A stretch of 38,987 bases of DNA from an uncultured Bacillales bacterium (GTDB lineage: Bacteria > Bacillota_I > Bacilli_A > RF39 > UBA660). Below the pieces are notes generated by a model. The model was given only the letters and a program-made list of their open reading frames with translations. It was not told the DNA's origin and did not search any database. A program made the translations under genes and the position numbers. Position 1 is the stretch's first letter. Each line of letters opens with the position of its first letter. Positions 34,370-38,987 of this stretch are shown one piece after another. Location: positions 1 to 38,987 of the forward strand of contig CAMJTE010000003.1 in NCBI GenBank assembly GCA_946408655.1, read 5' to 3'.

Positions 34370-36928
34370 TCATCTCTTAACTTTACACTTTTTTACACCA
34401 TAAATTATCAAAATTACAATTGATATAAATGATATAAAAATTCCTTTACCTAATCCTTCGGAATAATAAACTAATTTTATCTTATGATTACCTTTATCTA
34501 AGTTTATACTCATAAAGTCTCCAACACTCTTATTAATTTTTACTCTTTTACCGTTATCGTAAGCTATCCAGCCCTTATCATAAGGGATTGCTAGAAAAAG
34601 ATTTGATTTAGTATCAGTAGTAATATTGCCTTCAACTTTATTATTTTTAACTTTAACATCTTTTAGCTGATTATTCTTTAATTTATTATAAACTTTCTTA
34701 AATACTTCTTCATCAAAATAATATAAATATGCTTTATCCTTCCTTTTTATCATCGAATTATCAAGGCGCATCAGAATAGTTGAATTCTCATATTTATTAT
34801 CTAATACTACTGTACCTACATTCTCACTATCAAGAGACTCTACATACTCATCATTTATATATATTGTTTCATAAACTGACCAGTTAATAGCTACATCATA
34901 ATCGACTGTTAAGTATAGTTTTTTATTACTAGTATTGATATCAAATTCATATGTTCCATCACTAATATATCTTTTAGATAGAGGTTTTAATATTTTATCA
35001 TTAATACCACTTATCATACTTACAAATTTATTAATATTTTCAAAACTATTTTTATTATTTATCTTATATTCTTTAGCGCTCTTATTAATTATATATCCTA
35101 GTGATAACGCATAAGGGTTTTCATAGATATATACATTTTTCTTCTCATACTTTTTCTTAAACGAATTATATTTAGTAATAACAAATTTAGATTTATAATT
35201 ATAATATGTATCTTCTAGTTTATCTTTGCTATTAATATATTTAAATCCAAGTAATGAATCATAAATAGGTAATTTATTTAAGTCATAGATGAGTGTTGTA
35301 TAAGTAAGTGAACCACCATGTTTATGAAAGAATCTATAAAGATCACCATCATTAGTAGATAGCGCAGTTGTAAAGCCATGCGTACCACAAGTATGACTAT
35401 CTAAATAACTATAATAATGATTACCATCAATTCGATAGAAATTATTATCAATACCATTTAAATTATGACATGATTCATTATAAAATGTTGCATAGCTATT
35501 AACTACTCTTAATGATTTTACTGTAACTAATGTATCTATATAATTAAATGTTAACTCACCAAGAACAAGTATAAGCATAATAATACTTACAATTACTTTT
35601 TTATTTATTCTTGTATAGATAAAGAAAAGTATCAGATATATAATAGCAAACACCACACTAATTATAATATCAGTTTTAGATAAAAATACCAAATAAATAT
35701 TACTTACTTTATGACTCACAAATATATATAAAATAATTAGTATAATAAAATATCTTACTTTAATCTTATCACAGTTATAAAAACATTTAGCAGCTAAATA
35801 TATCGTAAAGAATGTATAAAAATAAGTAAACCTTGATATATATCCATTAGGGAATGAAAATGCTTGCCAAAACAATTGTAATTGGGGAATAACTAAACTA
35901 GCTATAAAGAATAATACAACAATTAAACTAAGGATCTTTTCCTTTCTTTTAATCTTCTTATTAAAGAAATATAATATTGATAACGCAAAACAAAATAATG
36001 ATACATATATTACCGGTCTATTTCTACCAAGTACTGATGCAGTATTATGTGTACCAATATAAGTTTTAGAAAAGACATTCCCTAAAAATGTTTTATAAAT
36101 ACTAGATATTTTAAAGTCAAGTAAACTTTTATCTAGTTCAAAACGCATAACATGACTTATATTAATAATACTTGGAATTAAAATTATTGAAGCAATTCCA
36201 CCAGCAAGTAAACTAAAGCAAGCAAATCTAATCATTATCTTTCCATACTCTTTAATCTGTTTAAACTTATATAAGCAAAATAATTCATACAAGAAATAAA
36301 TAACACAAAATATACATAACATATATGCCATATAAAAGTTAAACATGATTGCAAGCGATAATGTAATTGTATAAAATATTGGTTTTCCTCTAATTAATCT
36401 ATTTATTCCAATCATTACAAGTGGCATCATATATATTACATCAAACCACATATTATTAAAGTAATATACCGTTGTAAATCCCATTAAAGCATAACTAGTA
36501 GAAAAGATTAAATTAGTAAACTTAGTTCCATATTTATAATTTAGGAACATATTCATAAATAAGCCACATAAACCAAACTTAATCATTAGAATAATAAAAG
36601 TCATAAATGGTGTATCTACTTTTGATACAAACATATATAAAATATTAAATGGACTAGCAAGATAGTACCCAAATGTACTTGCCATGTTTCCACCTAATCC
36701 TTTAGAGAAAGAATAAAAAATTGAATCATTTCCAACAAATACATCATGAATATAATTATAAAGTGAATTATACTGACTAGCCATATCCGCAAGCAAATAA
36801 TTCTCTCCATTTTTAAAATTAGTACCATGACTTATTATTTCTAATCCAACAGTTACCCCTACTATTATTACAATAGGAATAATAAATGCACATATATTAA
36901 TTAATATTTTTTTTCTATCTAACTTCAT
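34370..36928 (-). CDS. YfhO family membrane protein (GT-C glycosyltransferase-like)
   Basis: D...QY, GLGGNM...YYLASPFN, NFYMAYM, F.NG...RF, IPYDKGW. Confidence 0.9.
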   Translation of the reverse strand: MKLDRKKILINICAFIIPIVIIVGVTVGLEIISHGTNFKNGENYLLADMASQYNSLYNYIHDVFVGNDSIFYSFSKGLGGNMASTFGYYLASPFNILYMFVSKVDTPFMTFIILMIKFGLCGLFMNMFLNYKYGTKFTNLIFSTSYALMGFTTVYYFNNMWFDVIYMMPLVMIGINRLIRGKPIFYTITLSLAIMFNFYMAYMLCIFCVIYFLYELFCLYKFKQIKEYGKIMIRFACFSLLAGGIASIILIPSIINISHVMRFELDKSLLDFKISSIYKTFLGNVFSKTYIGTHNTASVLGRNRPVIYVSLFCFALSILYFFNKKIKRKEKILSLIVVLFFIASLVIPQLQLFWQAFSFPNGYISRFTYFYTFFTIYLAAKCFYNCDKIKVRYFIILIILYIFVSHKVSNIYLVFLSKTDIIISVVFAIIYLILFFIYTRINKKVIVSIIMLILVLGELTFNYIDTLVTVKSLRVVNSYATFYNESCHNLNGIDNNFYRIDGNHYYSYLDSHTCGTHGFTTALSTNDGDLYRFFHKHGGSLTYTTLIYDLNKLPIYDSLLGFKYINSKDKLEDTYYNYKSKFVITKYNSFKKKYEKKNVYIYENPYALSLGYIINKSAKEYKINNKNSFENINKFVSMISGINDKILKPLSKRYISDGTYEFDINTSNKKLYLTVDYDVAINWSVYETIYINDEYVESLDSENVGTVVLDNKYENSTILMRLDNSMIKRKDKAYLYYFDEEVFKKVYNKLKNNQLKDVKVKNNKVEGNITTDTKSNLFLAIPYDKGWIAYDNGKRVKINKSVGDFMSINLDKGNHKIKLVYYSEGLGKGIFISFISIVILIIYGVKKCKVKR

Positions 36929-37145
36929 ATTTTTACCTCAAAATAATTATATATAATTTTTTTATTTTTAGCGCTAACACATAATACATGGTAAACAAGA
37001 TTGCTTACATTATGTGATGAATATAGATATTACTATCATTCATTTACAGACTCGCTACGTATAATTATACTCCTTTCAGCCATGCCGTTCAAGCAGTGGG
37101 AATTTCCCAAGAGTTAGGATTATACTGTGTATGTTTCTAGCTTAT

Positions 37146-37186
37146 TAAAAATGTTCATTATAAAAGTCTATTTTATAATGAACATT
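37146..37186 (-). terminator. Perfect 16-bp inverted repeat with T tail; probable end of the pilin transcript
   Basis: AATGTTCATTATAAAA-gtcta-TTTTATAATGAACATT. Confidence 0.55.
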
Positions 37187-37222
37187 CATTACATTCAAAA
37201 CTAAATTATCCACATAACTTAC

Positions 37223-37370
37223 CGGCTCCACTCACGTGACTTCGTCACAATCGTTCCGCACCTAACGGCAAATTACGCTCCGCTATTTGCCTATTACAAA
37301 TCCTTGTTTCACAAGGATTTGCACTCGCATCTAGTTTCTTACCCCGTCCTTACTTTACTCCTCCATAAGG
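37223..37370 (-). repeat. Cluster of hairpins with GNA loops downstream of the pilin-like gene
   Basis: Stems at 37236-37248, 37267-37291, 37297-37321 and 37348-37370. Confidence 0.7.
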
Positions 37371-37393
37371 TTTTAGTCTCACATTCACTCAGA

Positions 37394-38323
37394 TTAGAGT
37401 TCAGATTTTGAGAGAACTATAACTGGGCGAACAGCGCCGCGGTTGCTGCTGACGCTAATGCCGACAAGTCCGACGGACCCAACGACGTCCCAAACATAAG
37501 ACGACGAATCGCTGTATGGACTACTTGTCCAATACCAATAATTACTATTGTATACCCAACTTGGTGTATCATCTGTTTTTAGACCAACTTGATAACAACT
37601 TTCTGTACATTCTTGTTGGACTTGATATCCCAACCCATTTCTTAACTCATCTATAGTAATCAATCTTACTTCTGTTGCTGCTGGGGCTTTTGCTGCTTTC
37701 CATGCATCAACTGCAGTTTTTATATATGACCCTTCGTATGAATTACTACTTGAATGATATTGCATTCCTGTATAACCATTACTACTATAAGTTTTTGCAT
37801 CTGAAGGTTTATAATCTGATATTTCTTGAGCACTTAATGGTTCTGCTTTTAATAATTTAACTGTAGCCTGTGTAGTATCACTATTCTCTATTACATAGTA
37901 GTTTACATTATTATATGTTACTTGATTACCTACAGTATATGCTGTGTATGTTGGTGCAGGTGGAGTTTTATCACTTCCATATGCGTAATCTACTGTTCTT
38001 CCTGCAACTGTGCATCCTGTTAGATATACACTAGAATCACTATTCAATTGGGTTGTTGAACATACTACTTCATTTCCACTATATTCAATGGTTAACTCTG
38101 ATACATCTGTTGGAAATTTTCCTGTATCTAGTAGATATCCTGCTATCGCAAGTTCAATACTACGTCCATATGCATCAATACTTCTCTTATCTGCTGATAC
38201 TCGTGCCTTTCTTATTATGTTCATTACTAAAGGTGTAACAATTAGGGCAATTATTGCCATGATAACTAATACTGCAATTAACTCTATTAAAGTAAATGCA
38301 GATTTTCTACTTTTCATTTTCAT
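37394..38323 (-). CDS. Type IV pilin-like (prepilin N-methylation) protein with C-terminal CLec/DUF6273-like domain; putative DGR target
   Basis: KSA|FTLIELIAVLVIMAII class III signal; C-terminal YWTSSP...VW.V...GAVRPVI; ATG 38323 after AAGGAGG. Confidence 0.85.
   Translation of the reverse strand: MKMKSRKSAFTLIELIAVLVIMAIIALIVTPLVMNIIRKARVSADKRSIDAYGRSIELAIAGYLLDTGKFPTDVSELTIEYSGNEVVCSTTQLNSDSSVYLTGCTVAGRTVDYAYGSDKTPPAPTYTAYTVGNQVTYNNVNYYVIENSDTTQATVKLLKAEPLSAQEISDYKPSDAKTYSSNGYTGMQYHSSSNSYEGSYIKTAVDAWKAAKAPAATEVRLITIDELRNGLGYQVQQECTESCYQVGLKTDDTPSWVYNSNYWYWTSSPYSDSSSYVWDVVGSVGLVGISVSSNRGAVRPVIVLSKSEL
37427..37513 (-). other. Putative DGR variable region
   Basis: 60% GC over 37421-37500; 15 of 29 codons are NNC; invariant codons are A-free. 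Confidence 0.72.
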
Positions 38324-38425
38324 AATTATTTCCTCCTTCATTAAATTTTCATTTCATTTTACATGTAAAAATACATAAATATTTAAGATAGTGTATGAAA
38401 CATTACCTTTCCTATTTACACATCA

Positions 38426-38454
38426 AGTTTATCATGATTTTTCTACTAGGTCAA
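38426..38454 (-). promoter_or_regulatory. SigA-like promoter of the pilin-like gene
   Basis: TTGACC-N17-TAAACT with TG extension. Confidence 0.55.
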
Positions 38455-38568
38455 TACTTTTTACAAAAAAATGCAGTTCTAGATTATGCCCAAAACTTAC
38501 CACCTGCTCTCTAAGAAAATAATATCAAAAAACAGAATAAGAGTAAAGAAAAATATTTTTTCCATTAA

Positions 38569-38597
38569 TTTACATCTAATAGTATACGTGCTATAAT
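38569..38597 (+). promoter_or_regulatory. SigA-like promoter of the AAA ATPase gene
   Basis: TTTACA-N17-TATAAT with TG extension. Confidence 0.55.
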
Positions 38598-38621
38598 ATA
38601 AGCACAAAGGGGATGATATTT

Positions 38622-38987
38622 ATGAAAATGTTACCAATAGGAAGAGATAATTTTAAAGATCTTATGGATAATGATTTATATTATGTAGACAAGACTGATA
38701 TAATTGAACAGTTATTATATAATAAGAATTATGTATCTTTGTTTCCTAGACCTAGAAGATTTGGAAAAAGTTTATTTATATCAATGGTAGATCAATTTTT
38801 TAATATTGAGTATAAAGATAGAAATAAGAATTTATTTGATGGTTTAAAGATAAGTAAGAGCAATTATTATAACAGATTGTCATCTAATCCAGTTATAAAA
38901 CTAGATTTTAAAAATTTAAAACAAAATAATTTTGAAATTATGTATAATTCTTATAAAGAAATGATTAGAAAATTATACTCACGAAAA
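38622..38987 (+). CDS. AAA-ATPase-like protein (family usually fused to a PD-(D/E)XK nuclease), truncated by the window end; not in ORF track
   Basis: MKMLPIGRDNFKDL...YYVDKT...FPRPRRFGKSL. Confidence 0.88.
   Translation, partial: MKMLPIGRDNFKDLMDNDLYYVDKTDIIEQLLYNKNYVSLFPRPRRFGKSLFISMVDQFFNIEYKDRNKNLFDGLKISKSNYYNRLSSNPVIKLDFKNLKQNNFEIMYNSYKEMIRKLYSRK

Follow-up and report, generated by a model that had tools for sequence, protein, structure and literature searches.

To our knowledge, no bacterial system other than diversity-generating retroelements (DGRs) hypermutates proteins in a targeted manner, and the cellular targets of DGRs are mostly uncharacterised surface proteins. Here we analyse a type IV prepilin-like gene with a variable C-terminus, located in a 38,987-nucleotide (nt) stretch of DNA from an uncultured Bacillales bacterium (assembly GCA_946408655.1, contig CAMJTE010000003.1, positions 1 to 38,987; this whole stretch is called the window), and we argue that the 3′ end of this gene is probably a DGR-written variable region on a target that has no cassette of its own. 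The genome is a metagenome-assembled genome (MAG) of 108 contigs and 1.44 Mb, 84% complete with 3.7% contamination, in which the window is contig C3.

The closest described systems each share some of the traits of this locus. Category 'd' DGR targets combine DUF1566, DUF823 or Fib_succ_major domains with CLec2 variable regions, as in Legionella pneumophila LdtA (Wu et al. 2018, PMC5758913), and the Treponema denticola DGR has up to seven non-adjacent targets, which were assigned by adenine-only differences (PMC5758913). In Bordetella phage BPP-1, the initiation of mutagenic homing (IMH) sequence is accompanied by a GC-rich single-stem hairpin/cruciform that has a GRNA loop and follows the variable region at 4–34 bp (Guo et al. 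2011, PMC3240598). DUF6273 targets of phage DGRs, namely the tentaclins and Faecalibacterium prophage targets, carry the variable region at the C-terminus and are C-type-lectin-like in AlphaFold models (PMC10743442, PMC11792537), and work on type V pilus DGRs describes some elements as highly active and others as tightly controlled. DUF1566-type targets, remote targets and pilus-borne (type V) targets are already known; type IV pilins as DGR carriers have appeared in print only in passing, with a GspG-type pilin domain among the rare variable-region holders in one survey (PMC11661182), a mention of putative pilin structures, citing earlier work, in another paper (PMC6642488), and no study devoted to type IV pilin DGR targets found in our full-text literature search.

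Compared with these systems, the window gene resembles LdtA in that the variable region ends a DUF1566-like domain of a surface-exposed protein just before the stop codon, in its weak and mixed Pfam matches, and in scaffold residues of the W-x-V and VRP type. LdtA is a lipoprotein, whereas the present protein carries the class III signal peptide of a type IV prepilin, has DUF6273 as its better Pfam match, and comes from a small-genome, AT-rich, ruminant-gut Erysipelotrichaceae-like lineage. The scattering of several targets over the genome, away from the reverse transcriptase (RT), recalls T. denticola; here, however, the genus holds at least three template types, the template beside a paralogue has lost its RT, and the window target differs from every available template at more than adenines. 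Like type V pilus DGRs, the locus places a variable region on a pilus subunit of a gut bacterium, and the mixture of active and controlled elements described there fits the mixed stability of the variable region in the 21 protein pairs considered below; the present subunit, by contrast, is of type IV with a prepilin peptidase, belongs to another phylum and is known from sequence alone. The phage targets share a variable region at the C-terminal end of DUF6273, but the carrier here is a cellular pilin, and tblastn of its last 158 aa against 50,697 phage records gave no match; no close relative of the DGR RT was found in viral contigs either.

A GC-rich variable end on a type IV prepilin

The last codons of the gene differ sharply in composition from the remainder. 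Codons with a final C make up 15 of the 29 in 37427-37513 (minus strand), compared with 15 of the other 270 in the gene (Fisher p = 8e-10). For the same two parts, the GC content is 59.8% against 33.3% (genome 26.3%, window 27.7%), and the A content is 12.6% against 40%; a GC profile in 100-nt steps reaches its maximum of 0.53 at 37400-37499. An earlier note on this DNA, made from the letters alone, had listed these 29 codons (37513..37427) and pointed to the GC jump; its list agrees with the sequence letter for letter, and the GC-rich, C-ending 3′ stretch of the pilin gene is confirmed as real. The encoded C-terminus reads ...YWTSSPYSDSSSYVWDVVGSVGLVGISVSSNRGAVRPVIVLSKSEL.

The identity of the carrier is equally clear at its N-terminus, where the motif sequence KSAFTLIELIAVLVIMAIIALI is matched by N_methyl (PF07963) at 27.9 bits (cut-off 21.2) and by TIGR02532 at 24.8 bits (cut-off 16.3), so that the earlier description of a type IV prepilin-like protein is upheld by two models above cut-off. 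PF07963 also matches all 92 aligned homologues, and scores for the ComGC and GspG equivalog models lie below their cut-offs. Sequence-profile matches of the whole protein in the PDB are type IV pilins and GspG and cover the first ~75 residues only; the same kind of search with the C-terminal domain returned nothing below E = 4.9, and among PHROGs the pilin N-terminus alone was matched, with nothing elsewhere in the protein. At E <= 0.01, DUF6273 is found in 63 and Lcl_C (DUF1566) in 11 of the 92 homologues. The open reading frame (ORF) extends over 37394..38341 on the minus strand, and the ATG at 38323 was chosen as the start, backed by a GGAGG-type ribosome-binding site just upstream and by equivalent N-termini in homologues; the resulting length of 309 aa agrees with the coordinates in the note. 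The homologues number 1805 at E <= 1e-30, and the relatives are rumen MAGs of uncultured Erysipelotrichaceae or Bacillales, in agreement with the gut Bacilli lineage that the note had proposed.

Across the 92 aligned sequences, variability is concentrated where a DGR template would place it. Residues 1-220 have a mean entropy of 0.65 bits and residues 276-297 one of 2.37 bits, and when positions are sorted by the codons of the template repeat on metagenome contig L059, the 16 adenine-bearing codons average 2.98 bits against 0.57 for the 8 A-free ones (Mann-Whitney p = 1.6e-4). The scaffold DSSS...SG.L...AVRP recurs in the homologues P0002, P0003, P0015, P0029, P0032 and P0038. Among 21 pairs of proteins from the same 90% clusters, 48 of 453 variable-region positions differ when pooled, compared to 133 of 5113 elsewhere, and four pairs change mostly in the variable region, for example at 12 of 24 residues there and 1 of 283 elsewhere. 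A milder second variable block, with a mean entropy of 1.74 bits, occupies residues 221-252 (window 37570-37665), upstream of a YNSNYWYWT motif.

Template repeats, paralogues and positional orthologues

The variable end of the window gene has the format of DGR variable regions, as the earlier note had claimed: it is collinear with template repeats, its mismatches to them are biased towards adenines, and it has an invariant 3′ motif in common with them. The best template for the window is that of L059, which aligns without gaps over 72 nt and has 19 of 30 mismatches at template adenines (binomial p = 0.0036). The motif GTTCGCCCAG closes the variable ends of C3, C74 and C10 as well as the C74 and L059 templates, and the flanks diverge directly after it; its 8-base core occurs six times in the genome, four of these being the C3, C74 and C10 variable ends and the C74 template repeat. 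A template differing from the window variable region at adenines only, which the note had expected, was not found, the best being L059 with 19 adenine and 11 non-adenine mismatches.

Contig C74 of the same genome carries, in order, a 55-nt end of a multi-copy repeat, the last ~63 residues of an RT, an AAC-rich template repeat (about 283-372), a conserved spacer and a pilin ~90% identical to that of the window. The RT remnant (C74:45-251) is of DGR type and covers about residues 339-400 only; this template beside a truncated RT is an orphan template repeat. The note had reported no template or RT in the window, which holds for the window itself, although a related template exists elsewhere in the genome, on C74; and its prediction of a template beside an RT/avd pair is borne out in so far as the C74 template adjoins the RT remnant, but the RT is not intact and avd was not found in the assembly. 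Over the first 19 codons, the C74 template and its adjacent variable region differ at template adenines only, and the full alignment has 15 adenine and 1 non-adenine mismatches with 14 gap columns, so that this template is also non-collinear with its own neighbour. As a donor for the window, the C74 template was rejected as assembled, with 11 non-adenine mismatches and a length difference of one codon; by sequence it appears related to the window variable region, yet not cognate.

Adenine-only relationships are found elsewhere in the genus. In an ungapped, adenine-tolerant scan of all fetched DNA, 9 of 53 variable cores have a template with at most 3 non-adenine mismatches, and in one such pair, G004:C19 against G004:C3, the mismatches are 10 adenine and 0 non-adenine. 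Since the two lie on different contigs of one genome, non-adjacent targeting is documented in this genus. Intact bAvd-RT cassettes are present in the congeners G002, G003 and G004, and the full congener cassette has the order pilin, 3′ element (described below), MutS_I-like ORF, bAvd, RT of ~409 aa and template repeat. The MutS_I-like ORF (137-142 aa, MutS domain I E 2.3e-8; L129:4326-4739 and L096:4316-4744), lying between pilin and bAvd, is a candidate DGR accessory gene. Of 41 relatives, 16 have a template-plus-spacer module, as do 12 of the 301 family genomes sampled. In a different species, a template-repeat remnant at L054:2081-2139 (G003:C14) has a 59-nt stretch of 100% identity in common with the C74 template and carries an internal deletion flanked by two short repeat copies; the identity suggests a recent horizontal spread of the module.

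Two positional orthologues allow the window copy to be compared at its own locus. In a sister species, G002:C17 is collinear at 89% with window 34391-38383, a stretch that takes in the pilin, its 3′ element and YfhO. The variable regions of the two loci are equally long, and that of G002:C17 departs from the L059 template at 19 adenines and at no other base; around it, identity to the window drops to 0.58-0.67, against 0.95-0.98 just downstream. The G002:C17 gene is mosaic, resembling C74 at its 5′ end and C3 at its 3′ end. The second orthologue, L078, is collinear at 89.6%, with a 98.6% identical 3′ untranslated region (UTR), and has the same scaffold bases as the window at sites where the window mismatches known templates; these shared mismatches make a different template look likelier than drift, and we infer from the alignment that there may be an unseen template of the sub-lineage DSSS...SG.L...AVRP. 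Over 18 alignable codons (14 at the 5′ and 4 at the 3′ side), L078 and the window differ at 8 sites, all compatible with template adenines.

We also compared the locus with contigs, not reads, of 4 public runs among 19 listed rows in 11 studies. In three of the four runs (X1, X4 and X5), contigs covering the 3′ UTR stop exactly at 37432, and in run X2 one contig aligns to 37413-37541 without gaps and with 19 differing letters, while the contig that overlaps it, over 37509-37691, has 2. Among the 40 listed of 382 differing places, those in the variable region are 37482 (GTT->GAT) and 37469 (GGA->GGG); both also differ in L078, giving three different bases at each site. Site restriction at the level of the locus is in this way partially seen, the 8 L078 differences and the 2 listed run sites all falling at putative adenine sites.

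The genome contains 25 N_methyl prepilin-type matches, nine of them with this C-terminal domain, of which five are GC-rich (C3, C74, C10, C6 and C65) and four AT-rich (C8, C21, C23 and C35). Paralogous copies of the variable end consequently lie on eight further contigs, as the note had anticipated for other prepilin genes, and at least 5 of the 25 prepilin genes have GC-rich variable ends. The pilus machinery includes one prepilin peptidase (Peptidase_A24 at C10:16325-16651, 52.2 bits) and three T2SSE matches for the assembly ATPase, on C4, C104 and C1. The number of prepilin genes in a 1.4-Mb genome, together with at least three DGR template types across the genus, points to attachment specificity as a major variable trait in the rumen. 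The C10 paralogue (C10:7166-8085, L004) has its GC-rich variable end out of frame (77 nt vs 75 nt) and no 3′ hairpin; it must be a pseudogene or else the product of a misassembled variable stretch.

The structured element downstream of the gene

Beyond the stop codon, the 3′ UTR of the DGR target pilins contains an element of three to four hairpins, which in the window begins 72 nt past the stop and 101 nt past the end of the template homology. Its alignment (12 sequences, 10 distinct) has double changes in 11 of 30 pairs, a covariation score reached by 0 of 500 shuffles, and 97.3% of its cells are paired, against 31-40% when the alignment is slid; the element folds well in either form, with z-scores of -5.6 for DNA and -4.06 for RNA. 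An nhmmer search of the genome found 2 copies, after the C3 and C74 pilins, and none behind the template. Because Rfam returned nothing at E <= 1 over 36800-38700, the element falls outside the curated Rfam families. Type B targets have an analogous three-hairpin element in 7 of 8 distinct downstream regions, with 8 of 27 pairs covarying. The motif of hairpin 1 is found behind all four in-frame genes with GC-rich variable ends (C3, C74, C6 and C65), behind none of the four AT-rich paralogues and not behind the frameshifted C10 gene, counts that are descriptive only because the motif was written from these same sequences.

This arrangement parallels BPP-1 in several respects: the invariant GC-rich 3′ boundary is also present in the template, a structured inverted repeat stands behind the variable region and not behind the template, and the position of the present element, with its covarying stems and conserved loops, corresponds to that of the phage hairpin/cruciform. 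It differs in having three to four hairpins, whose GAA/GAG loops are closed by a covarying pair. On the strength of the covariation and this positional analogy, the element may serve in target recognition, and the locus bears on how non-adjacent targets are recognised as well as on whether template repeats without their own reverse transcriptase stay in use. A bolder idea, which we put forward as speculative and rather unlikely, is that the variable region and the three-hairpin, GAA-capped element together make up a portable target module for several co-resident DGR types, orphan templates served in trans included. If so, a reduced-genome ruminant-gut bacterium would diversify its adhesins, at type IV pilin tips, through a network of many donors and many targets, with target recognition at ~100 nt through a structure unlike a single GRNA hairpin.

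Origin and activity of the variable region

We consider it probable that a DGR wrote the variable 3′ end of the window gene and that this type IV pilin gene is a non-adjacent target, a judgement that covers DGR origin and target format and not present activity; the target is non-adjacent because the locus has no cassette of its own. The steps would follow the established DGR model. The template repeat would be transcribed, and a DGR reverse transcriptase with bAvd would copy it, randomising the template adenines; the cDNA would then replace 37423-37507, with the invariant GTTCGCCCAG as its 3′ limit, changing ~16 codons (AAY-type in the template) and leaving the A-free scaffold codons fixed, and the three-hairpin element 101 nt downstream would label the gene for targeting, much as the hairpin/cruciform does in the Bordetella phage. 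On this model the window copy would itself have been written by retrohoming, with a donor template that presumably belongs to the DSSS...SG.L...AVRP sub-lineage and lies outside the 84%-complete assembly, and the pilus would present the domain as a head that binds ligands. Continued rewriting of the variable region in this strain is possible, but we regard it as doubtful.

Several observations weigh against a DGR-written target. The C-terminal domain matches known families below their cut-offs, DUF6273 on residues 251-304 at 20.1 bits (cut-off 23.5) and Lcl_C on residues 211-301 at 19.6-19.7 bits (cut-off 34.9). The C74 template shows 17 adenine and 11 non-adenine mismatches to the window variable region with 6 gap columns, and with L059, too, 11 non-adenine mismatches remain, so the differences are adenine-biased but not exclusively so. 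An A-tolerant ungapped scan of the whole assembly with five variable ends gave A-rich noise, with at least 13 non-adenine mismatches in the best non-self match, and no cognate template was found in 41 relatives or among eleven further template loci from 301 family genomes. One scaffold position, a Gly codon in most relatives, is GTC (Val) in the window copy. Neither an intact DGR reverse transcriptase nor avd is present in the assembly, which is 84% complete and does not imply absence from the organism; because of this, the diversification in trans within this genome that the earlier note had proposed finds no support in the assembly. Metagenome contig L059 shares the RT truncation point of C74, fused there to a truncated AAA-ATPase_like gene (L059:1-650), and since this contig is independent, the truncation is not merely an assembly break. 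Of the 21 same-cluster pairs, 16 have identical variable regions, with 1-16 differing residues in the remainder of the protein; near-identical relatives often have identical variable regions, which is evidence against constant activity. A goat-gut contig from run X5 spans 37403-37919 with only 18 differing letters, so nearly the same variable region is present in another sample. Finally, 101 nt separate the hairpin element from the last position of template homology, as opposed to the 4-34 bp of published hairpins, which have GRNA loops (PMC3240598).

Many of these points are what would be expected of a frozen relic, in which an ancestor's DGR wrote the region and the strain no longer rewrites it, the cassette having lost its RT, the template that is left not being cognate and the sequence drifting. 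This alternative agrees with a DGR origin and differs only on present activity, and we hold it to be a serious contender, just short of an even chance. It would account for an RT cut to ~63 residues identically on C74 and L059, an assembly without DGR RT or avd, a cognate template missing from the assembly, relatives and family genomes searched, the Val codon at a mostly-Gly position, the 16 unchanged pairs and the recurrence of the variable region in a goat gut, and the paralogues on C8, C21, C23 and C35, with their AT-rich, hairpin-less C-termini, look like decayed versions. Yet the window region still stands at 59.8% GC in a 26.3% GC genome, is in frame and keeps its 3′ motif and 3′ element intact; the non-adenine mismatches are common to L078, which points to another template rather than to drift; the X2 contig over the variable region differs at 19 letters while its overlapping neighbour differs at 2; and ~16% of the genome is missing from the assembly.

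Recombination alone, that is, gene conversion among pilin paralogues that shuffles a GC-rich cassette with no reverse transcription at the locus, could explain why paralogues such as G002:C17 are mosaic, why the middle block of residues 221-252 varies too, why the C74 pilin falls in the same 90% cluster as a protein with another variable-region type, and why variable-region lengths differ. It leaves unexplained the adenine-only differences (0 against 19 in the orthologue, and no more than 3 non-adenine mismatches for 9 of 53 cores), the non-coding AAC-rich template copies beside RT and bAvd genes, and the entropy that tracks template adenines, and we regard it as improbable. Less credible still, to the point of being very improbable, is an assembly chimera or a functionless compositional accident: repeated pilin ends in a 108-contig MAG with 3.7% contamination could misassemble, and the C10 paralogue end is out of frame, but two independent assemblies are collinear, at 89-90%, with the stretch from the gene through its 3′ element to YfhO downstream, parts of the locus are covered by contigs of the 4 public runs, the reading frame is intact, its end matches a family of 1805 proteins, and the composition contrast has p = 8e-10. 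The public contigs, homologue family and collinear assemblies largely refute such an artefact, and a DGR origin with non-adjacent target format remains our preferred reading. The features on which it draws are collected in Table 1.

Table 1 Features of the pilin locus in the window.
Feature	Coordinates	Strand	Basis
Type IV prepilin-like gene, 309 aa, variable C-terminus	37394..38323, stop codon included	-	ORF and start-site evidence
Prepilin cleavage/methylation motif (KSAFTLIE..., Glu at +5) and hydrophobic helix	38237..38311	-	PF07963, Pfam E 1.6e-6; TIGR02532
C-terminal region, weak DUF6273 / Lcl_C (DUF1566) similarity, variable region at its end	37412..37693	-	Sub-cut-off Pfam matches
Variable-region-like stretch, homologous to DGR template repeats, 28 codons + 1 base	37423..37507	-	C74/L059 template alignments, composition, codon table
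Invariant 3′ boundary motif GTTCGCCCAG, IMH-like, common to variable regions and template repeats	37423..37432	-	
Conserved structured 3′ element, hairpins with GAA/GAG loops	37226..37321	-	Covariation; second copy at C74:1678-1802
Terminator-like AT-rich inverted repeat then T run, putative pilin transcript end	37145..37186	-	Sequence; inverted self-match 37150-37186
Upstream region, 83% homologous to C74 stretch between template-repeat module and pilin start	38356..38491	-	
Promoter-like TTGACC-17-TAAACT	38454..38426	-	Inside upstream region homologous to C74

The terminator-like inverted repeat listed there was not called by a terminator scan requiring G+C. Beyond the C74 remnant, the RVT_1 matches in the assembly are two only. 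The C36 enzyme (C36:4289-5308, L010, 339 aa) was rejected as a DGR reverse transcriptase, being retron St85-like (NF038233, 208 bits, just under cut-off), and a 596-aa ORF on C14 (C14:2907-3542, L009; RVT_1, 133 bits) is probably a group II intron protein. The multi-copy repeat end ...TTTGAGTTTACCC at C74:1-55 (L002:1-55), which abuts the truncated DGR RT, is also found at no fewer than 10 other contig ends, and a solitary intergenic copy of the TTTGAGTTTACCC-ended repeat lies in G002:C7 (L176:2863-2914). Divergent from the window pilin is an AAA-ATPase_like gene (PF09820; window 38613-38987, plus strand), and PF09820 homologues also adjoin the pilin paralogues on C23, C31 and C35, so that pilin and ATPase look like a repeated module.

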